Shown in pieces: positions 2,127 to 50,393 of a DNA stretch of 64,000 nucleotides. Every line of letters starts with the position of its first letter. Position 1 is the first letter of the stretch. The notes below the pieces were generated by a model. It saw only the letters and a program-made list of their open reading frames with translations. It had not been told where the DNA came from and did not search any database. Where the stretch lies: NCBI GenBank assembly GCA_002404995.1, contig DHKY01000014.1, forward strand, positions 7,524-71,523. Direction: 5' to 3'. This DNA comes from Bacillales bacterium UBA4682 (GTDB taxonomy: Bacteria > Bacillota_I > Bacilli_A > RFN20 > CAG-288). The translations under genes and the position numbers were made by a program.

Positions 2127-3059
2127 ATGAAGACTTCAGAACAAACTATGGATCTCAACAGAGAGACCGCTATGCGACTTTGGAATAAGCGTTATGGCAA
2201 AGCGACCACCGTGAAGGATTTCACTGGTCGTGAAATGGCCAAGGGCGCTTATAACGACCGCAATAGCGCAAAAGGGTGGAACGTAGATCACATCCTACCG
2301 CAAAGCAAAGGCGGTGCTACGGCCGAGCACAACTTGGCCATCTGCAACATTCAAACTAATGACGAGAAGGCGGATAAGTTCCCGAGCTTTAAAGCAAACG
2401 GAATCGTCTTTGATATCGTCAAAGTCCAGAACCATTACGAATATCGCAAACGCGAAGATTCTCCGAAAGTGGAAGAGGACGACGGGGATGTCAACTTCAT
2501 GGATTCCGCTTCCGGAATTCGCTTCTTTAAAGATTTGAAAGGAATCCAGAACAAGCCACGTTTTGTAGGTTCTATTCTAATCAGACTCAAGAATGTCGAG
2601 TCTACAGCGTTAATCGACATGATTGAAAAGTACTTCGACAAAGAGAACATCTCTTACTCTATGAGCAAAGCTTATTGCTCCGACGTAACCAGAATCATCG
2701 CCAAAAACTACAATATGCCGTTGAAAGATGATATTTCTGAACTACTTGATAAATGTATCGTCCTCAACACCTATTTGGGGCATTACTTCTTACCGATGAA
2801 ATATATCAGTGGTTACGATATTATTTTTAGAACAGATTACTTCGAACAGAAAGAGGAAATGTACATCAAGTCCCAAGGAATTGATTTCAGAGAAATCGAA
2901 AACACTGGATTCGACAATAAGCTGTTCATCAACTATATGGTTTGGAACAACAGCGAAGCCAAGGGGAAGATGCAATTCGACTCTTCTGGTTACGAAGCAT
3001 ACGATTACGTCTATACGGAATTAGCAAAAAACTTAGATAAGGAGGTTAATAGGGAGTAA
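2127..3059 (+). CDS. HNH-nuclease-domain protein. The HNH motif is N-terminal and is followed by a ~220-aa C-terminal domain of unknown function.
   Basis: GWNVDHILPQSKGGATAEHNLAICNIQTNDEKAD is a His-Me finger/HNH signature. The ORF is intact at 310 aa. Confidence 0.7.
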   Translation: MKTSEQTMDLNRETAMRLWNKRYGKATTVKDFTGREMAKGAYNDRNSAKGWNVDHILPQSKGGATAEHNLAICNIQTNDEKADKFPSFKANGIVFDIVKVQNHYEYRKREDSPKVEEDDGDVNFMDSASGIRFFKDLKGIQNKPRFVGSILIRLKNVESTALIDMIEKYFDKENISYSMSKAYCSDVTRIIAKNYNMPLKDDISELLDKCIVLNTYLGHYFLPMKYISGYDIIFRTDYFEQKEEMYIKSQGIDFREIENTGFDNKLFINYMVWNNSEAKGKMQFDSSGYEAYDYVYTELAKNLDKEVNRE

Positions 3060-3596: not shown

Positions 3597-3928
3597 CAGG
3601 AACGAAGGCGGTTCCAACCGATGAAACACCATCGACTGGGAGGCTCTAAAGCAGAGCTTGCCATGGTTGTCCGCTTTTGTCCGCAGCCCGTCCGCAAAAG
3701 CCAATGTACGCAAGGTGTTGGCATTCTTTTTCGTACTTTGGGCTGGAAACAAATACGCTATTTTCCGTCCTGTTCCTATCATGTACTCTTTTGTCTTCTA
3801 AATTAAGGAAAAGGATATGTAGGACTTAGAATCCATTGGAGCAATCCGTGCAGGTTCAATTCCTGTCGTCCGCACCAGTAAAAATAAAAGCCTCCGGTTC
3901 CTTCTTGGGATAACCGGAGGCTTTTTTT
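3597..3928 (+). ncRNA. Unclassified structured ncRNA-like element, copy 1 (~330 nt). It runs from the promoter to an intrinsic terminator. It has a 5' hairpin GGAACGAAGGCGGUUCC and a tRNA-like 3' end ...GGUUCAAUUCCUGUCGUCCGCACCA, then a GCCUCCGG...CCGGAGGC-U7 terminator.
   Basis: No ORF. About 75-80% identical to the inverted copy at 6603..6985, with perfectly conserved blocks interspersed with substitutions. It has its own promoter and terminator. Confidence 0.5.
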
Positions 3929-5713: not shown

Positions 5714-5861
5714 GAGAAGGTTAAACAATAGTGTTCCCAGTTCTCGGGCGCAGTATAATTCCTGTATTACGTTGCTGTAGTTCCGAGGCCGGCCTCAGGA
5801 TGATATAGAAGAAAGATTATACCGCATGCTGAGGATAGCAACGCTATTGTTTATCCTTCTC
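5714..5861. mobile_element. MITE-like element B (148 bp), the minimal member of the same terminal-inverted-repeat family. It contains the palindrome GAGGCCGGCCTC.
   Basis: Terminal inverted repeats TTGAGAAGGTTAAACAATAGTGTT / AACGCTATTGTTTATCCTTCTCAA. The first ~65 nt (as reverse complement) are ~90% identical to element A's left end. The core is shared with element C. Confidence 0.55.
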
Positions 5862-7347: not shown

Positions 7348-9162
7348 ATGGATGTAAACGCAGAAAAAATGAATTTCGATGTCAATAGTGTAAGTGTTGG
7401 CACTCTTCTTGGGTATGTTGAGGACAATACAATTGCAATTCCTGAAATTCAAAGACCTTATGTGTGGGAGGCTAAGCAAGTTCGTGATTTGATTGACTCT
7501 CTTTATAAAGGATATCCAATCGGATACATTATCACTTGGAAGAATCCTAACGTGAAGCTTAAGGATGGCTCAACGTCTGAGGGGAAACAAATTCTTATTG
7601 ATGGCCAACAAAGAGTCACTGCCCTTTCAGCGGCTCTTCTTGGAAAAGAAGTCCTTGATGCAGAGTACAAAAAGAAACGAATCAAAATCTCTTTTAACAT
7701 TAAGACCGAAACATTTGATGTTTGCAATCCTGCCAAGGAAAAAAGTCCGGAATGGATTTCGGACATTTCCCGTTTCCTCAAGCCTGGATTAGTGAATATG
7801 TATGAATTTTGTGGAGAATACGCGAAAATTTCTGGACTTGATGCCAATACAGTGAACAACAGAATATCCCGCCTTCTGAGTATTAAGGAATCGAGAGTAG
7901 GAAGAATTGAGTTATCTTCGGAAGCTGACATTGATACTGTAACTGAGATATTTGTGAGAATAAATTCACGTGGAAAGTCACTTTCTCAAGCGGATTTTGT
8001 CATGTCCAAAATCAGCGTTAATGAGAAATTCTCTGGAAATGACATAAGAAAGGCTATCGATTATTTTTCTCACTTTTTGCAAACGCCAACAGATTTTCCA
8101 CATATAAAAGATTGTGACACCGATTTTGCTTCTAAGGACATTTTCAGAAAGATGTCTTGGGCGGCTTCTTATTCAGATAATCTTTATAAGCCAGACTATT
8201 CTGACATGCTTAGAGTTGCTTTCACTTACAAATTCAAAAAAGGGAGACTTCAAGACTTGGTGAGTCTCCTTTCTGGTCGTGACTTTGAAACTAAAGAATA
8301 TAAAGAAGAGATTGCTCAGTCTAGTTTTGAAAGTCTTTATGATGGCGTCAAGGATTTTGTTAACGAAACCAATTACAATCGATACATCATGATTGTTAAA
8401 GGAACTGGAATTATAAACGAGTCCATTAAGCGGTCTCAGGGTGTTATTAATTTTGGATATATCCTTTATTTGCTCATGAAAGAGAAAAAATACCAGCCCT
8501 TTGATATTGAGAAATACGTAATGAAGTGGATTGTTTACTCTATTCTCACACAGCGATATTCTGGCTCTACTGAGACGGGTTTCGAGTACGATGTTAAGCG
8601 TTTAGATGCTTGTGGAAACATTCCCGAATATATTGATTCTCAAGCAGAAGCAGAACTTTCTGACGCTTTTTGGGAAAAGGTTCTTCCAGATCGTTTCAAT
8701 ACTTCAGTAGCTGGTAGTAGCTATTGGTATATTTTTCTTGCTGCACAAATAAAAGAAAATGATCATGCCTTTTTATCAAAAAGTAGTACTGTCAAAGACT
8801 TACTTGAGCAGAGAGGAGATGTTCATCATATTTTCCCGAAAAAATATTTGATTAAAAATGGTATAGATATTAAGCAGCGATATAATCAAATAGCAAATTA
8901 CGTTTATCTACAACAAGAAACAAATATTGCTATTAGCGACAGAGCACCCAACCAGTACTTTAAAGAATTAGAGGAACAGATAAATGGTGGCAAACAACGC
9001 TATGGATGCATACTTTCTCAAGACGAGCTGGAGGCCAATCTTGCCGAAAATGCTATCCCCTCAGGAATTCAGTCAATGGAATACGACTCATATGATAAAT
9101 TCCTTGAGGAACGCCGGAAACTTATGGCTGAAAAGATTAAGAAATATTTTCAAAGCTTTTAG
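7348..9162 (+). CDS. GmrSD-like type IV (modification-dependent) restriction endonuclease: N-terminal DUF262 (ParB-like NTPase/nuclease) and C-terminal DUF1524 (HNH/His-Me finger).
   Basis: N-terminal IAIPEIQRPYVWE...LIDGQQRVTAL (DUF262 motifs). C-terminal DVHHIFPKKYL...NYVYLQQETNIAIS (DUF1524). Confidence 0.8.
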   Translation: MDVNAEKMNFDVNSVSVGTLLGYVEDNTIAIPEIQRPYVWEAKQVRDLIDSLYKGYPIGYIITWKNPNVKLKDGSTSEGKQILIDGQQRVTALSAALLGKEVLDAEYKKKRIKISFNIKTETFDVCNPAKEKSPEWISDISRFLKPGLVNMYEFCGEYAKISGLDANTVNNRISRLLSIKESRVGRIELSSEADIDTVTEIFVRINSRGKSLSQADFVMSKISVNEKFSGNDIRKAIDYFSHFLQTPTDFPHIKDCDTDFASKDIFRKMSWAASYSDNLYKPDYSDMLRVAFTYKFKKGRLQDLVSLLSGRDFETKEYKEEIAQSSFESLYDGVKDFVNETNYNRYIMIVKGTGIINESIKRSQGVINFGYILYLLMKEKKYQPFDIEKYVMKWIVYSILTQRYSGSTETGFEYDVKRLDACGNIPEYIDSQAEAELSDAFWEKVLPDRFNTSVAGSSYWYIFLAAQIKENDHAFLSKSSTVKDLLEQRGDVHHIFPKKYLIKNGIDIKQRYNQIANYVYLQQETNIAISDRAPNQYFKELEEQINGGKQRYGCILSQDELEANLAENAIPSGIQSMEYDSYDKFLEERRKLMAEKIKKYFQSF

Positions 9163-13254: not shown

Positions 13255-13713
13255 GAAGGATAAACCATAGTGTCCCAGTCCTCGGACGCAGTATAATTCC
13301 TGTATTACGTTGCTGTAGTTCCGAGGCCGGCCATGGGCATCGCCCGAAGCAGCACGGAAGAGAACACGGGAAATAAATATGGGTGTGCCATGGCTGCAAG
13401 AGGATATTCTCGGACAAAAGCTGCACGAGCCTGTCCTATACCAAGCTGAAAACCTCGCAGATCAGGATGCCCCCTGTTCATGATCTCGGAAGGGCCGACC
13501 CTAAGATAGGTGCTCACCAAGCGCATGTGTCATCTTCTGCGGAAGGAGTAAAGGCAGAAAATCCGGAAAACCGCCGGGAACAAGGTGATACTCCAACGGA
13601 GAAGTTGGGGACTTGTCGGGACATGCGCTTGATCTACCGATTGATCTTCTTTCCGGTAAAACATTCAGAAAATGGGGAGTATTTGGCCATTAGCAGCACT
13701 ATTGTTTGTCTTC
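13255..13713. mobile_element. MITE-like element C (459 bp) with the same terminal-inverted-repeat family (GAAGGATAAACCATAGTGTCCC ... GCAGCACTATTGTTTGTCTTC).
   Basis: The left ~75 nt are near-identical to element B (CGCAGTATAATTCCTGTATTACGTTGCTGTAGTTCCGAGGCCGGCC). The right ~60 nt are similar to element A's right end. Confidence 0.5.
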
Positions 13714-14121: not shown

Positions 14122-14239
14122 AACAGGAAGGTTGTATAGATATCTCGTTTCAAAAAGGACTATAAGCGGGGCCATCTCAATATAAACCTTTACATAACGC
14201 CATAAGTCCAAAATAGAATTAATATTGCAAGAAATAAGA

Positions 14240-14377
14240 TAGATGACAAAGGAACACTCTTTCTAGGCTTAAAGGAATTCCTTATCAATCCAGATTCCAT
14301 AAAATCCTAAAAGATCTTTTAAAACCACATTTGTTTTCTAAAACATAAAATTGCAAGAACTTGCAAAAATTTTAGTT
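14240..14377 (+). repeat. 138-bp direct repeat, identical to 15637..15774. It consists of the last ~38 codons of a COG1373 ATPase gene plus ~65 bp of 3' flank, including the palindrome TTGCAAGAACTTGCAA.
   Basis: Exact duplication. A third copy of 'TGCAAGAACTTGCAAAAATTTTAGTTA' at 14413..14441 sits between a TATATAAT box and the RBS of the ATPase gene. Confidence 0.8.
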
Positions 14378-14453
14378 ATAAATCTTTTTTGGCTTCTTCA
14401 AGTTATATAATAAATGTGCAAGAACTTGCAAAAATTTTAGTTAGGAGGCAGAT

Positions 14454-15704
14454 ATGATTGAAAGAAACGAATATCTGAGAAAGCTCATTGACCGAATGGG
14501 AAATGGAAGGATCAAGGTAATCACTGGCATCAGAAGATGCGGTAAATCCTATTTGTTATTTGAAATATTTTATAACTATCTGCTTGAAAACGGGGTTGAT
14601 AAGTCACATATCATCGCTTTACAACTAGATGACAGGCTGAATATCAAATTCCAAAATCCAGAATATTTGTGTCAATATGTTCATAATCAGATTACTGACG
14701 ACGGGAAGTACTATATACTTTTAGATGAAGTGCAATTCGTGGATCATTTTGAAAGGGTTTTGAATTCTTTCCTGCACATCAAAAACGCAGATGTTTATGT
14801 GACTGGAAGCAATGCGAAATTTCTTTCTTCGGACATTATTACTGAATTCAGAGGAAGAGGAGACCAAATTTATTTATCGCCGCTGTCTTTCAAAGAATAT
14901 TATGATTATTGCAAAATAGATTTTGATGATGCGTGGAATGAATATTCCATGTATGGAGGCATGCCTTTTCTTTTGACTTGCAAAACAGACGAACAAAAAG
15001 TTCATTATTTAGAAAACCTTTTCACTGAGACCTACATAAAAGATATTGTCAATCGTCACAATATCCGAGACACCGACGTTTTAGAAGATGTCCTGAATAT
15101 TGTTTCTTCAAGTGTCGGTTCATTGACAAACCCTAATAAGTTATCGAATTCATTCAAATCTATCAAGAGCATCGATGTGGCACCTAACACAATCAAGCAA
15201 TATCTTGATTATTGCATTGACTCCTTTTTGTTGCAAAAAGCATACCGGTACGATGTCAAAGGAAAGAAATACATTGACACGCCTTTAAAATACTATTTCA
15301 CCGATATAGGCTTAAGAAACGCAAGACTAGGATTCAGACAGCAGGAAGAAAACCACATCATGGAAAACATCCTATTTAACGAATTGGTAATCCGTGGATA
15401 TAAAGTAGACGTTGGTGTTGTAACCACCAGTGAAAAGAACCCAAATGGTAACTATGTAAGAAAAAACCGAGAAGTTGATTTTGTCTGTAATCTCGGATAT
15501 GAGAGATACTACATACAATCCGCGTTTGCTCTCGATGATGCAGAAAAGAAAGAGCAAGAAGAAAAATCCTTGCTGAATATCCATGACGGTTTTAAAAAAA
15601 TCATCATTGTAAGAAATAACATCAAGAAATGGATAGATGACAAAGGAACACTCTTTCTAGGCTTAAAGGAATTCCTTATCAATCCAGATTCCATAAAATC
15701 CTAA
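14454..15704 (+). CDS. AAA+ ATPase of the COG1373 / AAA_14-DUF4143 family (P-loop ATPase fused to a C-terminal PD-(D/E)xK-like domain).
   Basis: VITGIRRCGKSYLL Walker A at the N-terminus. C-terminal NREVDFVCNLGYERYYIQSAFAL (E.D..-type nuclease-fold motif). Paralog of 34833..36068. Confidence 0.8.
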   Translation: MIERNEYLRKLIDRMGNGRIKVITGIRRCGKSYLLFEIFYNYLLENGVDKSHIIALQLDDRLNIKFQNPEYLCQYVHNQITDDGKYYILLDEVQFVDHFERVLNSFLHIKNADVYVTGSNAKFLSSDIITEFRGRGDQIYLSPLSFKEYYDYCKIDFDDAWNEYSMYGGMPFLLTCKTDEQKVHYLENLFTETYIKDIVNRHNIRDTDVLEDVLNIVSSSVGSLTNPNKLSNSFKSIKSIDVAPNTIKQYLDYCIDSFLLQKAYRYDVKGKKYIDTPLKYYFTDIGLRNARLGFRQQEENHIMENILFNELVIRGYKVDVGVVTTSEKNPNGNYVRKNREVDFVCNLGYERYYIQSAFALDDAEKKEQEEKSLLNIHDGFKKIIIVRNNIKKWIDDKGTLFLGLKEFLINPDSIKS

Positions 15705-15774
15705 AAGATCTTTTAAAACCACATTTGTTTTCTAAAACATAAAATTGCAAGAACTTGCAAAAATTTTAGTTAGA
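15637..15774 (+). repeat. Downstream copy of the 138-bp direct repeat (3' end of the ATPase gene + flank with the TTGCAAGAACTTGCAA palindrome).
   Basis: Identical to 14240..14377. Confidence 0.8.
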
Positions 15775-15963
15775 ATGCTTGTCCTCAAAGAAAACTGCCG
15801 ATGTTGTCAGAGAGGGAACTGACGCAAATTTCACCAGTCCCTTATCCTGTTATGCGAGGAATGCACTTTAGTCTATTATTTGCACATATAAAGCACACGT
15901 TTAGCTACCTTCATTTCCCTCGAATCGTATAATGAAGTCAGATACAAGTAAGGAGGCATATAT

Positions 15964-20676: not shown

Positions 20677-20974
20677 GTCTTAAAATATCATTGTTCAATA
20701 ACATTGTTGCATAGCCAAGAATTCAAATAATCTACCACTTAATTCAATAAGATAACTATATTTCGAGCAATAATTGCTTTATCAAAACAGTCTTTTCAAA
20801 GATAAATGCGAGACGAAATATTTTTTGTGCAGATTTCATCACAATATTTTAAGTTTCAAAATTCCGATTATTTTGATTTTATAAATCGTCTTTTATAATT
20901 TTATGATTTGTTACTGCTTAACATTGAGTTTTTTTCTCAATTTTAATACAATATTTAAAATGGAGGCAGGATTT

Positions 20975-22240
20975 ATGCTTTTACAGTTCAATTTCGAAAA
21001 CTATGGTCCTTTCAAAGAAGAAGCATCGCTAAACCTTGAAGCAGCACCCTATGCTGAATTCAAAGAACAGATTCGAACAATCGGGAACAAGAAAATTCTT
21101 CCTTTAGCCGCTATCTATGGTGCAAATGCCAGTGGAAAGTCTTTTACCTACAACGCTTTCAATTACAGGAAGTTCAGGGTGCTTTTTTCCAGGAGCCTTG
21201 ATTTAGAAAAAAGCAAAACGACCCTTAATCCTTTTCCGGAAGCAGTGCCTTTCCGATTAGACAAAGAAAGTGAAAACAGTCCTTCCTCCTTTGAAGTGAT
21301 CTTAACCTCCGAAATAGACGGGAAAGAAATCACTCTTCAATATGGATTTTCTGTATTTCAGCGCCAGATTGTTAAAGAATGGCTTTATCAACTTCCTCAG
21401 CGGAGTACTTCTGCCGTAAAAGAATACCTCTTGCGAGACAGAGAAACTATTAGTATAAAGATTCCCGAATTAGATGATTCCATCAAAACAACTTTAGAGA
21501 AATCTACTCCTTCTTCAGCACTTGTCTTATCTTTTGGTTCCAGACTAAATGTGGAACCATTTAAAACTATTTTTAACTTTTTTAATATTTCCTTAGTTAC
21601 CGACTTTGGTAACCTTTCTGAAATGTTTTTCCGTGAGCACCTGCTTCCTATAGGTATAGCTGAAAACAAAGAAAGCCTATCGGATTGTGTTTCGTTTCTT
21701 CAGAGCTTCGAACCTTCTATCAAGAATATTCGATTAGAGGAAATCAAGCAGGACAATAATCAAAAGCAATATTTTATTAAAACCATACATAGAACGATAA
21801 ACGGAGAAGAAGTGGAATTTCGAAGGGAAAACGAATCCTCAGGAACAAAGAAAAGGTTCCAATTCTATAGTTTTCTTCGCCAGGCAATCAGTACGGGAAG
21901 TGTCCTTTTCGTTGATGAACTCAATTCACGTCTTCATCCTCTGCTTTTGCGGAATATTCTTCTGCTTTTTCTTTCCCAGGAAAAGAATCCAAACCATTCA
22001 CAGCTAATTTTCACTTGCCATGAGCCTTGGCTGTTAAGCGCAAAAATTCTACGCCGCGATGAAATTTACTTTACAAACAAAAATCTCAAAACCCAAGCTT
22101 CTGAGCTCTATTCCTTGGCTGAGTTCAAAGATGAAAAGGGAATGAAAATACGTTCCGATGAGGACTTTGAAAAGAATTACCTTCTCGGAAAATATGATGG
22201 AATCCCCGTTCTTTCAAATATGGGAATAAAAGGAGAATAG
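20975..22240 (+). CDS. AAA_21/OLD-type ATPase (AbiLi-like) of a two-gene abortive-infection-type module.
   Basis: FNFENYGPFKEEASLNL...IYGANASGKS N-terminal Walker A typical of AAA_21/AbiEii-like ATPases, and FVDELNSRLHP Walker B. Start chosen after the GGAGG RBS. The ORF track's upstream extension begins at 20903. Confidence 0.65.
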   Translation: MLLQFNFENYGPFKEEASLNLEAAPYAEFKEQIRTIGNKKILPLAAIYGANASGKSFTYNAFNYRKFRVLFSRSLDLEKSKTTLNPFPEAVPFRLDKESENSPSSFEVILTSEIDGKEITLQYGFSVFQRQIVKEWLYQLPQRSTSAVKEYLLRDRETISIKIPELDDSIKTTLEKSTPSSALVLSFGSRLNVEPFKTIFNFFNISLVTDFGNLSEMFFREHLLPIGIAENKESLSDCVSFLQSFEPSIKNIRLEEIKQDNNQKQYFIKTIHRTINGEEVEFRRENESSGTKKRFQFYSFLRQAISTGSVLFVDELNSRLHPLLLRNILLLFLSQEKNPNHSQLIFTCHEPWLLSAKILRRDEIYFTNKNLKTQASELYSLAEFKDEKGMKIRSDEDFEKNYLLGKYDGIPVLSNMGIKGE

Positions 22241-22244
22241 GCAA

Positions 22245-22895
22245 ATGGGACTTGGCAGACCAGGGAAAAAGCCCCGAAAGCAAGGGTCACGACGAGAACT
22301 TTTTGAAAATATCCTGATTGTTACGGATGGTGAGAAAACAGAAGCTAATTATTTTCAGGGACTACGTAATTCATTTCCTGAGCCTATCAGAAATAAGATA
22401 AGCATAAAAATCCTAGCTAAGCTTGATACACAAGAACTTGTTGAACGATCACTGAAAGAACAGAGAGAAGACCCTAGGGAACGGGAAATCTGGATAGTTT
22501 TCGATAAAGACAATCGGCCTGATGATTTTGACAGAATAATATCAAGTGCCAAAAAGCATGGTATTAATATTGCTTGGTCCAATCCCTGTATTGAGATTTT
22601 CTTTCACGCTTATTATGGGAAAAGGCCGAAAAACACAGATGCAAAGCAATGTATTTCTGCTTTTTCTATCGATTTTCAAAAAGCAACCAAGAAAGAATAC
22701 TTGAAAAACGACAAAGAAATTTATGATATCCTGTGTCATTCAGGAGATGAGAAGAAAGCTATTGAATTTTCCAAAAAGAAATTAAAGCAATCAATAAATG
22801 AAGCCGAAAGTAAAAAGCCTTCTTCTTATTGTCCGGGTTCTACTCTTCATGAATTAGTTGGTAAAATCACAAGCCATCGCCCGGAGAACAAATAA
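22245..22895 (+). CDS. RloB-like protein (TOPRIM-like, AbiLii-like partner).
   Basis: ILIVTDGEKTEANYFQGL matches the RloB N-terminal hallmark (ILIVcEGEKTEpnYF). It starts 4 bp after the ATPase stop. Confidence 0.65.
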   Translation: MGLGRPGKKPRKQGSRRELFENILIVTDGEKTEANYFQGLRNSFPEPIRNKISIKILAKLDTQELVERSLKEQREDPREREIWIVFDKDNRPDDFDRIISSAKKHGINIAWSNPCIEIFFHAYYGKRPKNTDAKQCISAFSIDFQKATKKEYLKNDKEIYDILCHSGDEKKAIEFSKKKLKQSINEAESKKPSSYCPGSTLHELVGKITSHRPENK

Positions 22896-34278: not shown

Positions 34279-34765
34279 AACTGATTATCTCCTCCGTTTG
34301 GTTTGTTCTAGTTATTGATTCGAAGATATTGTAACCCTTTTCAAGAACAAAAAAAGAAGGTTTGTTTTCCACACTTTCATTCGAAACGATTTGTTTCCGT
34401 TATTTTGCCAACAAAACTCAAAATAATTATAGATATAAATATAATCTATAAGATGCTAAAGGATACATTGTCTATAAAATCAAACCATAAAAGATTCGTA
34501 GAAAAGCAATATTGATATTTTGTTTTTTGGATAGTTCAATTTATAGATACAAACACTGTTTTCGGCAATTGTTGCTTAATTTCGGATTTATACACATTTT
34601 GATAGGACCAAGAATTGCTTTACAAGCATACAGCATATCCTGATATTTCAGAAAAAATACGTTTCCATGAAACCAGTGTTCTAAAGCATTCAATAAACAA
34701 TGAATATTCCTTGATTTTCTCTTATCATACCAGACTGCAGTATCACCGGATAGTTAAACCATAGC

Positions 34766-34812
34766 ATGTGTTTTTCGTTGGAACTTTTACAATTTTGTTG
34801 AAATTCCAACGA
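34766..34812 (+). repeat. 47-bp direct repeat (second copy at 36069..36115) containing an 8-bp perfect inverted repeat CGTTGGAA-N20-TTCCAACG. It precisely brackets the COG1373 ATPase gene.
   Basis: TTTTCGTTGGAACTTTTACAATTTTGTTGAAATTCCAACGATAA is present 20 bp upstream of the ATG and again starting at the first base after the stop codon. Confidence 0.75.
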
Positions 34813-34832
34813 TAATTCGATATTCTATCTTT

Positions 34833-36068
34833 ATGGATAATATTATTTTACGGAAGCAATATCTCGATAAAATCCGGCCGTTTTATGATTCAAAATATAT
34901 TAAGGCTATTACCGGAATAAGACGTTGCGGAAAGTCCGAGCTCATTAAACAGATAATTAAAGAAATCAAAGATCGCGGAGTTGATGACCAACACATTATT
35001 TTCCTGGATTTGGAAGGAAGAAGCGGTGAAGGAATCACAACACGACTTAAACTAGAGAAGAAGCTTGATTCTATGATTACGGATGACAACAAATACTACA
35101 TTTTCATAGATGAAGTGCAGCACATCAAAAAATTCGAAGAAGCAATAGCATCTGTACGGATAAGTTATAATTGTTCCCTATTTGTTACAGGCAGCAATTC
35201 CAGATTGTTACATGGCAAATTGCAAGATAGATTGACAGGCCGTGCAAAAGAATTCGAGCTGTATCCTTTTTCTTATAAAGAAACTTTGGAATACAAAGCC
35301 GCAAGTGAAATAGAAATAAGTGATGATGATTTTCAAGACTATTTAGAGAACGGGGGAAGGCCTCAGCGATATGAGGAGCAAGACAAATCAGCAATAAAAG
35401 ATTACCTACGTTCCCTTTGTCATTTCATCATCGAAAAAGATGTCTTTGGCTCCCATAATAAAATAAATCGTTTGGAATTTGAAAATATAGCGAAATACAT
35501 TATTTCAACTACAGGCAAGCCTTTTTCGGCTTTATCAATTGCAAAACATTTAAGAAACACAAAGACAAAAGAAGAGCAAAAGAATCTTTCTCAAACAGTC
35601 AATAATTACGTTCAATATCTTCAGGATTGCTATTTCATCACAGCATGCAATCCATATTATCTAAAGGATAAAGAAAGACTAAACGGAGTGAAAAAATACT
35701 ATCCCGTTGATACTGGATTAAGAAGTGCATTCAATGAAACGATAGAATTTGACGACACCTTTGCCCTAGAAGCTGTTATCTTTAACGAATTGATTATGCG
35801 GGGATACGAAGTCAGTTACGGAAAGCTACGGGATGGAGAAATTGATTTCGTTGTAAAAAAAGACACAAGAAAATGTCTGATCCAGGTAGCCTATTCCATT
35901 TCAAACCAAACCACTTTTGACCGAGAATACAAAGCATTTGACAAGGTCAAGGATCATTCCCCGAAATATGTTCTTTCTCTTGATAAGAAAGACACCTCTA
36001 ATAATGGAATCACCCATCTGAATATAATTGATTTCTTGCTTGGAAAGAAAGATATCTGCCTTAGCTGA
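34833..36068 (+). CDS. AAA+ ATPase of the COG1373 / AAA_14-DUF4143 family (second paralog).
   Basis: AITGIRRCGKSELI Walker A. C-terminal DGEIDFVVKKDTRKCLIQVAYSI nuclease-fold motif. Confidence 0.8.
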   Translation: MDNIILRKQYLDKIRPFYDSKYIKAITGIRRCGKSELIKQIIKEIKDRGVDDQHIIFLDLEGRSGEGITTRLKLEKKLDSMITDDNKYYIFIDEVQHIKKFEEAIASVRISYNCSLFVTGSNSRLLHGKLQDRLTGRAKEFELYPFSYKETLEYKAASEIEISDDDFQDYLENGGRPQRYEEQDKSAIKDYLRSLCHFIIEKDVFGSHNKINRLEFENIAKYIISTTGKPFSALSIAKHLRNTKTKEEQKNLSQTVNNYVQYLQDCYFITACNPYYLKDKERLNGVKKYYPVDTGLRSAFNETIEFDDTFALEAVIFNELIMRGYEVSYGKLRDGEIDFVVKKDTRKCLIQVAYSISNQTTFDREYKAFDKVKDHSPKYVLSLDKKDTSNNGITHLNIIDFLLGKKDICLS

Positions 36069-36115
36069 TTTTCGTTGGAACTTTTACAATTTTGTTGAAA
36101 TTCCAACGATAAATC
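36069..36115 (+). repeat. Downstream copy of the 47-bp direct repeat with the CGTTGGAA/TTCCAACG palindrome.
   Basis: Identical over 45 of 47 nt to 34766..34812. Confidence 0.75.
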
Positions 36116-36277
36116 GTTTTGTTTCTTCCACATCTTGGAAAAACATTTGGATTTGCCGGATTTCTAGCATTCGTTTTTCCAGGCACCAAACAGGCATAGA
36201 CGTTGACAAATTACAATCAAACCGATATCTTTATTAGTCTATTAAGTTTTAATAAATATATAAAGGAGCACTAAACA

Positions 36278-38404
36278 ATGAAAAAAACAAAAACAGCATT
36301 GCTTTCTCTTCTCGCCTTTATTCTTCCCCTTAGGGCATGTGGGAAAAATGATCCTGTCAGCAATTCGAATAGCAACCCATCTGTTCCTTCTACTGAGAAA
36401 CCTTCTTTGACCGAAAAGCCTTCGGCTTCCCAGCAGCCATCTAGCGACAGCACGATCCATGTCGATAGCCGTCTTTCTCTCTTCAGGCAGGGAGATCTTT
36501 ACAAGGATGCCATCCGTGCTATCTACCTAAAGAGGGACGGCATCTCTGGTGAAATCGAATGGTCTTCCAACAACGAAGATATCGTTGCTATCGGAAGCAA
36601 TCCGATTAACGGAGCAAGGCCGGAAGTCAATCTGATTGCCAAAGATTACGGAACAGCAGTCATCACGGCAAAGCTGAAATCTGATCCGACCGTCTATTCC
36701 CAATATGAGGTCCTTGTCTCTGACGCCTTCACTCCTAGGAGCACAGAAAGGTTTGCCCTTGTTTCCTCTTCTAGGAAGAGGACAACGACGGAAACCTACT
36801 ATTCCTATGATGTCAACTATACAAAGAGCGAAAACGGAAAGAGTACGGGAGTCACGATCTTTGAGGAAAACGAAGAGCAGTCTTCCGGAAACAACCTTAC
36901 CGATGCCTATCAGATCAACGTCACGGAAAGGGATGGAAAAACCTTTGAAAAGAAGTATGTCCGGGATGGTCGTTATCTTGCTAGCGAATATCTTGATTTC
37001 CAGAACAATGTCCGGAAAAAGATTCTGACCAACACAGACGAGGATCAGACCCAAAGGTACTGGGAAACCTCTCCCTATTTCAACTATCTTGGCTATTCTT
37101 CTGTTGTCACCAAGGAAGACTTTGTCTCCTTCGATAATGGTTCCACCTATCACTTTGTCGGAGGCTATGAAGCCGCTGCACAGATCTGTCTGAACTTCTA
37201 TCAGGAAGACAGGACACCCGATGACAGGTATTTCACCGTCGAAAACGGAACTATCGCCTCTTTCCACGTTGTCATCGATCCGTATAAAGGAAACACCAAC
37301 GATTCCGAGAACATCCAGGTTAAGTACGGAAGGGAAATCACTTCTGTTTTATCCGAACTTGGAACTGCAAAAATCGAGCATCTCGCCAAATATCCTCATG
37401 AATCCTATCAGGATCCAATCACTCAGGCACTCAACACCAGGAAAGCATCGAAAAACTATGTTTCCAGCGTGACCCGCAAGACAAGCGGAAGCGCCGATGA
37501 AAAAACCGTCTATACCTATACGGAAGACACGATTGATATTGTCTATTCGGTCGGTAACCAAGTCCTTACCCACACCGGTGTCCATAAAGTCGATGACAAC
37601 AACTATTACGAATATGAGCACGACGATAGCACGAACACCACCACTATCACAAAGAAACACAACTCCGTGTTTGATGGCACCGACAGCAGCGGAAAGAAAG
37701 TCAACCGCTATCCGACCTTCGACTTTGCCCCAGAGATTTTCGATAAGACCAATGACACCAACACCTTTAATTCCCGTGGAAATACGGCGCAGTTCATCTC
37801 TTACTGTTCCTACATCCCGGCAACTTGGACCCTGCTCCACACCTATGTCGGTGACGGAACCATCGTCTTAGATGGAAACAGCCACTTAAGCAAAGCCAGT
37901 GCCAAGAGGACCGATGGCACTACGGACTACGACTTAAGCATCGACTATTCCTCCTTCGGAACCGCAGCCGTCAGCATCGACTTCTCGAAAGCCACCGAAC
38001 CCACCCTTCCGACTTCTTTCGAAGAAGCTTATCCTTCCTTAGCCAAGGAAAGGAAAGCATGGAACATTTATGATGCTGTTCCTTTCCTCTACTATGAGCC
38101 TGGATACAGCACAGCCGTTGAATGGGAGCGTGCCGACGACACGAATCCGGAATGCGCCTACATCCGGACCAACAGGCTCGACGATAGCCAGGCAGCTGTC
38201 TGCACAAAGTTCATCTCCGATTACAAACAGCTTCTCCTTGATACCGGCTATACCTTGACCGGAAGCAAGGACAAGCATGGCTATGATCTCTATGTAAAAG
38301 GAGATTATAAGATTTCTATCGGAAACGAGCTGAACTGGAACAATCAAGTCCGTCCTGCTGCCGTCATCCGTGTCTATTCCTCTCTTCTCACCAATCCAAA
38401 CTAA
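36278..38404 (+). CDS. Large surface lipoprotein (708 aa) with a Big_2-like Ig domain.
   Basis: MKKTKTALLSLLAFILPLRAC lipobox. S/P-rich linker. Ig-like domain (IEWSSNNEDIVAIG...AKLKSDP). Confidence 0.6.
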   Translation: MKKTKTALLSLLAFILPLRACGKNDPVSNSNSNPSVPSTEKPSLTEKPSASQQPSSDSTIHVDSRLSLFRQGDLYKDAIRAIYLKRDGISGEIEWSSNNEDIVAIGSNPINGARPEVNLIAKDYGTAVITAKLKSDPTVYSQYEVLVSDAFTPRSTERFALVSSSRKRTTTETYYSYDVNYTKSENGKSTGVTIFEENEEQSSGNNLTDAYQINVTERDGKTFEKKYVRDGRYLASEYLDFQNNVRKKILTNTDEDQTQRYWETSPYFNYLGYSSVVTKEDFVSFDNGSTYHFVGGYEAAAQICLNFYQEDRTPDDRYFTVENGTIASFHVVIDPYKGNTNDSENIQVKYGREITSVLSELGTAKIEHLAKYPHESYQDPITQALNTRKASKNYVSSVTRKTSGSADEKTVYTYTEDTIDIVYSVGNQVLTHTGVHKVDDNNYYEYEHDDSTNTTTITKKHNSVFDGTDSSGKKVNRYPTFDFAPEIFDKTNDTNTFNSRGNTAQFISYCSYIPATWTLLHTYVGDGTIVLDGNSHLSKASAKRTDGTTDYDLSIDYSSFGTAAVSIDFSKATEPTLPTSFEEAYPSLAKERKAWNIYDAVPFLYYEPGYSTAVEWERADDTNPECAYIRTNRLDDSQAAVCTKFISDYKQLLLDTGYTLTGSKDKHGYDLYVKGDYKISIGNELNWNNQVRPAAVIRVYSSLLTNPN

Positions 38405-48978: not shown

Positions 48979-49139
48979 CCATTGACTCTTTTCTTTCTAC
49001 GACTATAATTCTCAATCGGAAATGATGTCTTCCAGATATAGGGTCTGCCTATATCAAACCGCTTTGGATTATAAAGCTGATGACGTCTATGCTGGTTTTC
49101 AGCATAGAGGAAATCAGCTTTTTTCATAGGAGGTAGAAG

Positions 49140-50393
49140 ATGTCTATTTTCTTCACTTTGTTTCTGATTATTTTCGGAGGTGTGGTTCTTAACAAGCTGG
49201 CAAAGAGGGTTCATGTTCCTCCTCTTGTTCTGTATCTGCTTTATGGCATTCTTCTTTCTGTATTAGAAGAAAAGTTCGATTCTTCCTTTACTTTCCTCGA
49301 TTCCGGAGTCAGGAATATTTCTTCAGCTATTCGGAAGGTCGCCTTAATTATCATTCTTCTTAAAGCAGGGCTCTCTCTTAATCTATCCGATTTAAAGAAA
49401 GTTGGTAGACCAGCTATTCTAAGGTCTTTTCTTCCAGCCTGTACGGAAAGGGTAGCCGTAGGTATCTTTGGCAAGAGGATTCTGGGTTTAAGCTACACTG
49501 AGAGTTTTCTTCTTGGTTCCGTGCTTGGCGCCGTTTCTCCGGCAGTTGTCATTCCGAGGATGTCAAAACTGAGGGATGAGAAATACGGTACCGAAAAAGG
49601 AATTCCACAGCTTGTCATTGCCGGAAGCAGTATCGATGACATTATCAGGATTGTCTTTTATCAATGCTTCTTGACTAGGGAAAAAGGAGGAAGCCTTTCA
49701 GTGAGGACTTTCCTGAATATCCCCATTTCCATTGTCACAGGTGTCGGTTTGGGAATCCTTTTGGGTAGGCTCTTATCTTTTGTCTTTGATAAAGCAAAAA
49801 GGAACGATACCCTAAAACTGCTACTTCTTCTTTCCATCTGTTTCGGGCTTACTTATTTAGAAGACCTTGTCTCTCCTTATTTTGGATATTCTTCCCTTCT
49901 TTCCATCATTACCTGTGCCATTGTCCTCCATAAGAAAATAGAACCGGTATCCTTAGATCTTAAGAATAAGTTCAATGAAATCTGGTACTTAGCTGAAATC
50001 TTCCTTTTTGTCTTAGTCGGAGCGGGAATCAAGATTGAATATGCCGGCAAATTCTTCCTGCCTGCCCTTCTCCTGCTTTTGATTTCCCTTGCCTTCCGCA
50101 GCTTAGCTGTTACTGGTTGTTTAGTAAAAACCAAGCTGAACTGGAAGGAAAGAGGCTTTGTTGTCATAAGCTATCTTCCGAAAGCGACAGTCCAGGCCGC
50201 TATTGGAGGAGGATTATTGGATCTTGGGAACCAGCTTCTGGCCTCGGGAGCTGCAAATGCAGAAAGTGTCATAGCCGCAGGCACGATTGTTTTATCCGTT
50301 TCAGTCCTTGCTATTCTTCTCACTGCGCCAGCTGCAGCAATTTCAAGGAACCTTCTTTATCCCCATAGGCTGAGAAGAGAAGAGTGCAAATAG
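49140..50393 (+). CDS. Cation:proton antiporter-like membrane transporter (CPA/NhaP-like).
   Basis: About 12 transmembrane segments, 417 aa. N-terminal pattern typical of Na+/H+ exchanger family proteins. Confidence 0.55.
   Translation: MSIFFTLFLIIFGGVVLNKLAKRVHVPPLVLYLLYGILLSVLEEKFDSSFTFLDSGVRNISSAIRKVALIIILLKAGLSLNLSDLKKVGRPAILRSFLPACTERVAVGIFGKRILGLSYTESFLLGSVLGAVSPAVVIPRMSKLRDEKYGTEKGIPQLVIAGSSIDDIIRIVFYQCFLTREKGGSLSVRTFLNIPISIVTGVGLGILLGRLLSFVFDKAKRNDTLKLLLLLSICFGLTYLEDLVSPYFGYSSLLSIITCAIVLHKKIEPVSLDLKNKFNEIWYLAEIFLFVLVGAGIKIEYAGKFFLPALLLLLISLAFRSLAVTGCLVKTKLNWKERGFVVISYLPKATVQAAIGGGLLDLGNQLLASGAANAESVIAAGTIVLSVSVLAILLTAPAAAISRNLLYPHRLRREECK

Follow-up and report, generated by a model that had tools for sequence, protein, structure and literature searches.

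The stretch analysed here, called the window throughout, comprises 64,000 nucleotides (nt) of contig DHKY01000014.1 from Bacillales bacterium UBA4682 and carries two paralogous ATPase genes of the COG1373 family, at 14454-15704 (paralog 1) and at 34833-36068. The second gene, our main subject, encodes a protein of 411 amino acids (aa) and is bracketed by two copies of a palindromic direct repeat, the first of which overlaps a promoter-like site. In window coordinates, the features of this locus are:

34769-34819, no strand assigned: upstream copy of the repeat, with a 44-nt imperfect palindrome at 34772-34815 and arms CGTTGGAA (34776-34783) and TTCCAACG (34804-34811)
34798-34826, + strand: promoter-like site from a promoter scan; the layout is the same in 6 loci
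34833-36068, + strand: 411-aa ATPase with AAA_14 and DUF4143 domains (COG1373; PADLOC PDC-S01), from the open reading frame (ORF), Pfam, PADLOC and an AlphaFold model
36066-36116, no strand assigned: downstream copy of the repeat, with its palindrome at 36069-36112 and arms at 36073-36080 and 36101-36108

A repeat search of the window returned the two copies as a direct repeat of 51 nt with 96% identity, within which a core of 44 nt (34772-34815 and 36069-36112) is exactly common to both. A preliminary description of this DNA had already noticed the bracketing and placed one copy about 20 base pairs (bp) before the ATG and the other right after the stop codon, and the coordinates confirm that position: 17 nt separate the end of the upstream core, and 21 nt the end of its arm, from the ATG at 34833, and the base right after the TGA stop codon (36066-36068) is the first of the downstream core. 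The palindrome CGTTGGAA-N20-TTCCAACG reported at the same time is present, but the 8-bp stem ascribed to it is too short, since the repeat unit is an imperfect palindrome nearly from end to end, with inverted arms of 21 nt at 81% identity. Folding the unit as single-stranded RNA, a check that had been proposed, gave a hairpin of -18.6 kcal/mol (z=-4.5). The 36-nt pattern has exactly 2 occurrences in the 64 kb with up to 3 mismatches allowed and none in 100 shuffles even at 3 mismatches. A chance origin, which had been thought hard to credit, is thereby ruled out, and within the window the sites are private to the ATPase gene.

The same unit was found at 12 independent loci, namely the window locus, L002, L003, L009, L030, L185, L017, L266, L022, L269, L023 and L270, whose proteins are 57-100% identical to the window protein. 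The upstream palindrome is present in all 12, about 20 nt (or the length of the leader) before the start codon, and a second copy follows the stop codon in 11, at a distance of 0-5 nt in 10 loci and of 79 nt in L009. Neighbouring genes vary from one locus to another and include YqeY, an SMC-like gene with a Na-Pi transporter, RelB with an ABC transporter, GH3 and others, so that the same unit recurs in differing genomic contexts; the proposal that the repeats are gene-specific and travel with the gene is thus borne out. Given that related bacteria keep this package of a gene and two sites, we take the palindromes to be, most probably, DNA sites bound by the protein itself and not a product of chance or an insertion scar.

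How strongly the sites are retained can be seen in L002, which comes from another species and is orthologous to the window locus, with synteny on the downstream side. Compared with the window, its gene has 78.7% nucleotide identity, falling to 52.9% at third codon positions, and the flanking intergenic DNA about 63-66%; both palindromes retain 93-95%, and their substitutions are confined to the apical 4 nt and are common to both copies in each genome. Conservation of this kind in the alignments indicates purifying selection on both palindrome copies. Covariation was assessed on 23 palindrome sequences against slid controls and 500 shuffles: 79% of cells in the dyad are paired as compared to 37-48% in the slid controls, and none of the 500 shuffles scored as high. 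At arm position 9/36 (columns 10 and 37 of alignment A2) the pair is GC in 12 sequences, UA in 9 and CG in 2, and it is never unpaired. The arms covary, and across these sequences the dyad is kept by compensatory change. The arm sequence is conserved within the close subfamily and alters where the protein diverges, from CGTTGGAA to CGTTTGA, CGTTCGG or CGAGTGA.

The two copies of a locus are related in two ways. In 6 loci they are 93-100% identical, in direct orientation, and mutual nearest relatives. In 5 loci they are 70-80% identical and at times better aligned when inverted, and there the arms (82%) are better preserved than the inner part (66%; p=0.018). The inner 'loop' is identical within a locus and different between loci.

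The upstream copy occupies a promoter. Its right half contains the -35 box TTGAAA (34798-34803), the right arm lies within the 17-nt spacer, and the -10 box TATTCT (34821-34826) sits just outside the repeat, 6 nt before the ATG. A dyad-symmetric site thus lies on the -35 box and spacer of the gene's own promoter, the arrangement of a promoter-overlapping operator, and the geometry (-35 box, 16-17 nt, -10 box, 6 nt, ATG), with the right arm inside the spacer, is kept in the window, L002, L003, L009, L030 and L185. This layout suggests that the ATPase mRNA is leaderless; as such a transcript would start downstream of the palindrome, the upstream copy would act as DNA and not as RNA. Because the repeat ends just before the -10 box, the downstream copy has a -35 box and no -10 box. 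Paired operator and terminator modules had been considered in the preliminary description; of these the operator suits the upstream copy, whereas an intrinsic terminator is ruled out for the downstream one, whose stem is followed by ATAAATCG with no T-run and which lies in a region (34300-36400) where a scan found 0 terminator-like sites. That the downstream copy serves as operator of the next gene was rejected as a general explanation, since the next gene is convergent in L003, L009, L266 and L082; in L235 it may do so.

The protein encoded between the sites matches the Pfam families AAA_14 (5.9e-30, N-terminal) and then DUF4143 (7.2e-17), the only two that pass the curated cut-off, and it contains no transposase domain. 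It matches the PADLOC profile PDLC04787 (PDC-S01) over its full length at 2.1e-123, and paralog 1 matches the PDC-S01 family at 1e-114. No match to the DnaA or Cdc6 Pfam families was found in the 411-aa protein, ATPase_2 being weak and below the cut-off; sequence searches of PDB with the ATPase gave spurious repeat-protein matches only, and a look-up of the exact window protein gave no match. An AlphaFold model built with 35 homologues as input (mean pLDDT 88.6) comes closest, among PDB structures, to ORC subunits and archaeal Orc1/Cdc6 on origin DNA (2qby, 2v1u), over about 390 aligned columns, with RFC clamp-loader subunits next in rank. The predicted fold resembles an ORC/Cdc6-like AAA+ domain, lid and winged helix, followed by a PD-(D/E)XK-type C-terminal domain. 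Its C-terminal motif ExD...QxA/S was compared in 112 family sequences, where the E and D are invariant and the Q nearly so. DUF4143 has been placed among the PD-(D/E)XK families with function unknown (PMC3424549). PDC-S01 is an extremely abundant, unvalidated defence candidate (PMC12988326, PMC13356809), the fourth most common across prokaryotes (PMC12988326) and, in rumen genomes, the individual defence locus met most often (PMC13356809). No account of cis elements for PDC-S01 was found in the literature.

A scan of one genome per species yielded 80 relatives with 33-66% identity, from Bacilli, Clostridia, Spirochaetes, Bacteroidota, Actinomycetota, Kiritimatiellia, Gammaproteobacteria and methanogenic archaea, and 71 loci entered the statistical tests. 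A strict test for perfect shared 7-mer arms (7 of 77 loci) proved too stringent, and local-alignment tests were used instead, with these results:

Strong flanking direct repeats: family 14/71, neighbouring ORFs 4/143, p=7e-5
Repeats in either orientation, tighter windows: family 12/71, neighbouring ORFs 2/114, p=2e-4
Upstream dyad-symmetry score, median: family 11, neighbouring ORFs 7, p=2e-14
Upstream dyad-symmetry score of at least 10: family 65%, neighbouring ORFs 13%

Flanking repeats thus occur overall in about 20% of family members and in 3% of neighbouring genes. The expectation that family members are generally flanked by gene-specific repeats holds for the close subfamily (11 of 12) and not for distant members, most of which lack them, the finding that had been named as evidence against such a rule. 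Many of the repeats are long palindromes of wholly different sequence (for example GTTAAGGGG..CCCCTTAAC and TTAACGAATCAC..GTGATTCGTTAA); they vary with the clade and as a rule adjoin or overlap the -35 box, and further examples occur on viral contigs. From these comparisons the upstream clade-specific palindrome is a hallmark of the family, and the second flanking copy a property of certain subfamilies, this one among them. Two unrelated loci have another short repeat (TTATCTAGCCTCTTCATTAGA...) around family members, farther out than the palindromes:

L017, 5842-5879, 7422-7442 and 7636-7673: TTATCTAGCCTCTTCATTAGA... repeat
L031, 219-243 and 1657-1681: TTATCTAGCCTCTTCATTAGA... repeat

Many subfamily homologues sit on contigs of 1.3-1.5 kb, a hint that exact flanking repeats are common.

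Paralog 1, which is 29% identical to the 411-aa ATPase, has a more elaborate arrangement:

14215-14386, + strand: 5'-deleted remnant of a tandem copy of paralog 1, with its last ~35 codons, 45 nt and palindrome copy A (14345-14384)
14410-14449, no strand assigned: palindrome copy B (TGCAAGAACTTGCAA), between the TATAAT box and the Shine-Dalgarno sequence and ATG
14454-15704, + strand: paralog 1, a 416-aa AAA_14 and DUF4143 protein
15632-15780, + strand: right copy of a 149-nt repeat, with the last 73 nt of the paralog 1 coding sequence, 45 nt and palindrome copy C (15739-15778)

A private repeat with an inner palindrome had been described here too, and we find it as a direct repeat of 149 nt (14238-14386 and 15632-15780; 98% identity, 141 nt exact) which contains the palindrome TTGCAAGAACTTGCAA, the third palindrome copy lying at 14410-14449. 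It had been overlooked that this repeat takes in the last 73 nt of the coding sequence, and its homology reaches back to about codon 382 if a 12-nt indel is allowed. In relatives of paralog 1, two operator copies flank the promoter. The order at the locus is 3' fragment, palindrome A, promoter, palindrome B, gene, palindrome C. A tandem duplication through unequal exchange between downstream and upstream palindromes would give this order once most of the first copy had been deleted, and the layout thus shows that flanking repeats of this kind do recombine. The paralog 1 unit was also met alone on a metagenome contig of 1491 nt (L001), whose first and last 97 nt overlap, as expected when an assembler meets a 149-nt flanking repeat. 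In Bifidobacterium panos (L048, 2604-2944 and 3760-5221) the full gene is preceded at 1.1 kb by a mini-copy with an internal deletion, in which the promoter region and first codons run straight into the last ~30 codons; the mini-copy has another family member as its neighbour.

We favour the reading, to which we assign a probability of about 0.45, that the ATPase encoded between the two copies of the 44-nt element recognises this element as its cognate DNA site, with a promoter-overlapping operator upstream and a second site downstream that is kept similar by selection and gene conversion. The ATPase itself would be the binder, as suggested by the likeness of its modelled fold to DNA-bound Orc1/Cdc6 and by the change of the arms in diverged loci, and we infer both that binding represses transcription and that the second site has the following role. 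Bound at the upstream copy, the ATPase would occlude RNA polymerase and autoregulate its leaderless transcript. The downstream copy would be a second cognate site with arms under selection, re-homogenised with the upstream copy in many lineages by gene conversion or by unequal exchange between the short repeats. An oligomeric AAA+ protein could then bridge both sites, with the gene looped out, or act as a roadblock. Site, promoter, gene and site would together form a self-contained module under tight control, able to pass through horizontal transfer in one piece, and a portable, self-regulated module is the best-supported reading of the whole.

Several points weigh against this interpretation. 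In the broad family, downstream dyad symmetry shows no enrichment over controls and a recognisable second copy is found in only about 17-20% of members, so that the two-site layout is not required family-wide. Operator selection alone leaves the identity of the loops within a locus unexplained, and gene conversion must therefore be invoked. For a simple winged-helix dimer, half-sites of about 18-20 bp are long, the case for the ATPase as binder is indirect, drawn from sequence and a predicted structure, and operators give the conserved nuclease-type domain no role.

Established systems offer parallels to a protein acting on sites around its own gene. In the lac (O1/O2), gal (OE/OI) and deo systems, autoregulated genes have a promoter-overlapping operator and a distant auxiliary one. 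The ATPase locus shares with them a palindrome over the -35 box and spacer, a second, presumably cognate site about 1.3 kb off and sites private to the unit; it differs in that the second site lies past the stop codon and the whole gene is bracketed, the presumed binder has AAA+ and nuclease folds and is no classical repressor, the sites extend over 44 bp and the copies evolve in concert. In Bacillus subtilis and Helicobacter pylori, dnaA lies between two clusters of DnaA boxes (bipartite oriC), and archaeal orc1/cdc6 genes lie beside ORB elements. Here too the gene of a putative initiator-clade AAA+ protein with a DNA-binding domain adjoins presumed cognate, dyad-symmetric sites, and the best structural matches of the model are Orc1/Cdc6-DNA complexes; the likeness is, however, structural only, as no DnaA or Cdc6 Pfam match exists, there is one site per side instead of clusters, neither an unwinding element nor replication is in evidence, and the protein has an extra PD-(D/E)XK-type domain.

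A live minority hypothesis, which we regard as unlikely, takes the palindromes as the ends of a single-gene mobile cassette. The AAA+/PD-(D/E)XK protein or a host enzyme would excise the unit, for example as a circle with one palindrome, and re-insertion would regenerate the terminal duplication, with copies identical at birth. The very compact unit is intact in unrelated neighbourhoods and taxa, and the 6 loci whose copies are mutual nearest relatives, with inner sequences differing between loci, are in keeping with such an origin. So is the extent of the repeat, which reaches a few nt into the last codons in the window, L023 and L269 and spans the whole promoter over 100 nt in L082, resembling a circularly permuted unit. 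Movement itself is documented for a distant member (33% identity): on Acinetobacter plasmids (L277, L278, L279 and L280) a PDC-S01 unit of about 1.4-1.5 kb, with its left junction at CATTTACT, is 96-98% identical at the nucleotide level in at least 3 unrelated contexts, so that single-gene PDC-S01 units do move, and at a site beside a BREX locus the unit is replaced by a hypothetical protein and Fic cassette. Acinetobacter accounts for 171 of the 224 plasmid matches. Frequent inter-genus and inter-domain transfer of COG1373/PDC-S01 has been published (PMC10782964, PMC12988326).

Against this stands the residence of the unit: the window and L002 are downstream-syntenic with saturated synonymous sites and still have identical repeats, and since the unit is thus long resident, copy identity is no sign of recent insertion. 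No genome was found to carry identical units at two places, each exact protein that was looked up had the same immediate gene neighbours in all places listed, the orientation of the two copies is not fixed, and no short repeats indicative of a target-site duplication were seen outside the 51-nt repeats. The partial tandem copies at paralog 1 and L048 could speak for excision and re-insertion, but for that of paralog 1 ordinary unequal exchange involving the flanking repeats, with a subsequent deletion, is explanation enough. Orthologues of the downstream lipoprotein (80% and 65% identity) in L274 and L275 lack the ATPase and carry no solo palindrome, hence no single-copy scar and no trace of a long target duplication; as upstream synteny with the window is broken in both, no clean empty site can be defined. 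A palindrome scan of metagenome contigs returned 120 loci, mostly chance matches, of which 4 encode the ATPase, L009 and L011 among them. One human-gut contig (L172, 1053-1102) has a solo subfamily palindrome and promoter region with no ATPase ORF after it, a point in favour of the cassette. Its flanks match no other collected locus, for which reason it is not demonstrable as a deletion allele; it may be what a deletion left behind or an orphan site.

The preliminary description had suggested sites attC-like in logic and, as a check, a look for a co-occurring recombinase; the idea is not supported. Among the ORFs of at least 150 aa in the 64-kb window, none has the domain of a tyrosine or serine recombinase, integrase, resolvase or transposase, so that no IntI with a nearby attI is found there. 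The arm order GTTGGAA...TTCCAAC on both strands is the reverse of R''(RYYYAAC)...R'(GTTRRRY) in attC, and the gene is isolated, outside any array, with its own conserved -35 and -10 boxes. Integron attC is thus ruled out by the missing integrase, the reversed core order and the gene's own promoter, although in both cases imperfect palindromes of about 50 nt, different from gene to gene, enclose a gene. The Xer-dependent dif/pdif modules of Acinetobacter plasmids have short, imperfect palindromic sites and no recombinase of their own. Our unit is likewise a short module bracketed by imperfect palindromes and encoding no recombinase, but it has arms of 8-12 bp about 20 bp apart instead of a 28-bp 11-6-11 site, and a search with the pdif consensus found no such sites even around the Acinetobacter homologues. 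In REPtrons, genes for RAYT transposases are flanked by cognate REP palindromes; a single gene bracketed by palindromes specific to its clade is common to both, whereas our ATPase is not an HUH/Y1 transposase and its palindrome is not dispersed within the 64 kb, where it has 2 copies. Transposons and insertion sequences differ in that neither a transposase domain nor a target-site duplication was found at the ATPase locus. A bolder form of the mobility hypothesis, which we find somewhat less likely still, makes PDC-S01/COG1373 genes autonomous single-gene selfish cassettes, whose ORC-like AAA+/PD-(D/E)XK protein would recognise and cut or recombine its own terminal palindromes, leave as a one-palindrome circle and re-enter with the terminal duplication regenerated.

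It is improbable, in our judgement, that the downstream copy acts as RNA, in the form of a 3' stem-loop for termination or mRNA stabilisation, its likeness to the upstream operator being secondary. The stable hairpin, its place directly after the stop codon in 10 of 11 loci and the covarying arms would all suit a transcribed structure; yet no T-run or terminator-like site accompanies the stem, Rfam gave no match to the repeat above threshold (sub-threshold generic hairpins only), and the arm sequence is conserved in the close subfamily, not free to covary. Moreover, the upstream copy of the same sequence precedes the predicted start site and would be untranscribed from the gene's promoter, and a role in RNA gives no reason for the copies to stay identical. 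Finally, the repeats are very improbably neutral, functionless relics of a tandem duplication or of a target-duplicating insertion: paralog 1 shows that tandem duplication and partial deletion occur in the family, and Nobusato et al. in 2000 and Furuta et al. in 2010 reportedly described long flanking duplications around restriction-modification genes, but the repeat is element sequence and not target sequence, because the same palindrome goes with homologues in differing contexts, both copies are conserved far above neutral expectation, and the two-site layout recurs in 11 of 12 independent loci which, with proteins 57-86% identical, are not recent transfers of one sequence.

Elsewhere in the window, further repeats and genes were recorded. 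A 53-nt direct repeat (1311-1363 and 3825-3877; 83%) ends in GGTTCAATTYCTGTCGTCCGCACCA, which is like the 3' end of a tRNA or tmRNA, and encloses 2.5 kb (with 1952-2082 and 2127-3059) containing a match to the Rfam family Staphylococcus-1 RNA (109.9 bits) and an ORF with an HNH domain; this segment may be a small integrated element. ARAGORN found no tRNA in the window. A 60-nt direct repeat (5735-5794 and 13273-13332; 97%) surrounds about 7.5 kb including a GmrSD-type restriction gene (7348-9162), and its copies may be the borders of an inserted defence segment adjoining paralog 1. At 20903-22895 lie an AAA_21 ATPase and an RloB-like protein, which as a pair look like a defence system. Judged by its gene content (the AAA_21/RloB-like pair, HNH, GmrSD and paralog 1), the first third of the window appears to have the character of a defence island. 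A fluoride riboswitch (49009-49096; 43.1 bits) upstream of an ORF of the Na_H_Exchanger family (49140-50393) is ordinary.

For the PDC-S01 family, a long clade-specific palindrome on the promoter, with a second copy bracketing the gene in whole subfamilies, provides the first concrete hypothesis of the DNA that these proteins recognise, namely that an ORC-like protein has a specific 44-bp site, and this is directly testable. Were the genes selfish cassettes, they would constitute a new class of mobile element without a conventional recombinase. For censuses of defence systems, part of the abundance of PDC-S01 may come from selfish spread and not from immunity.

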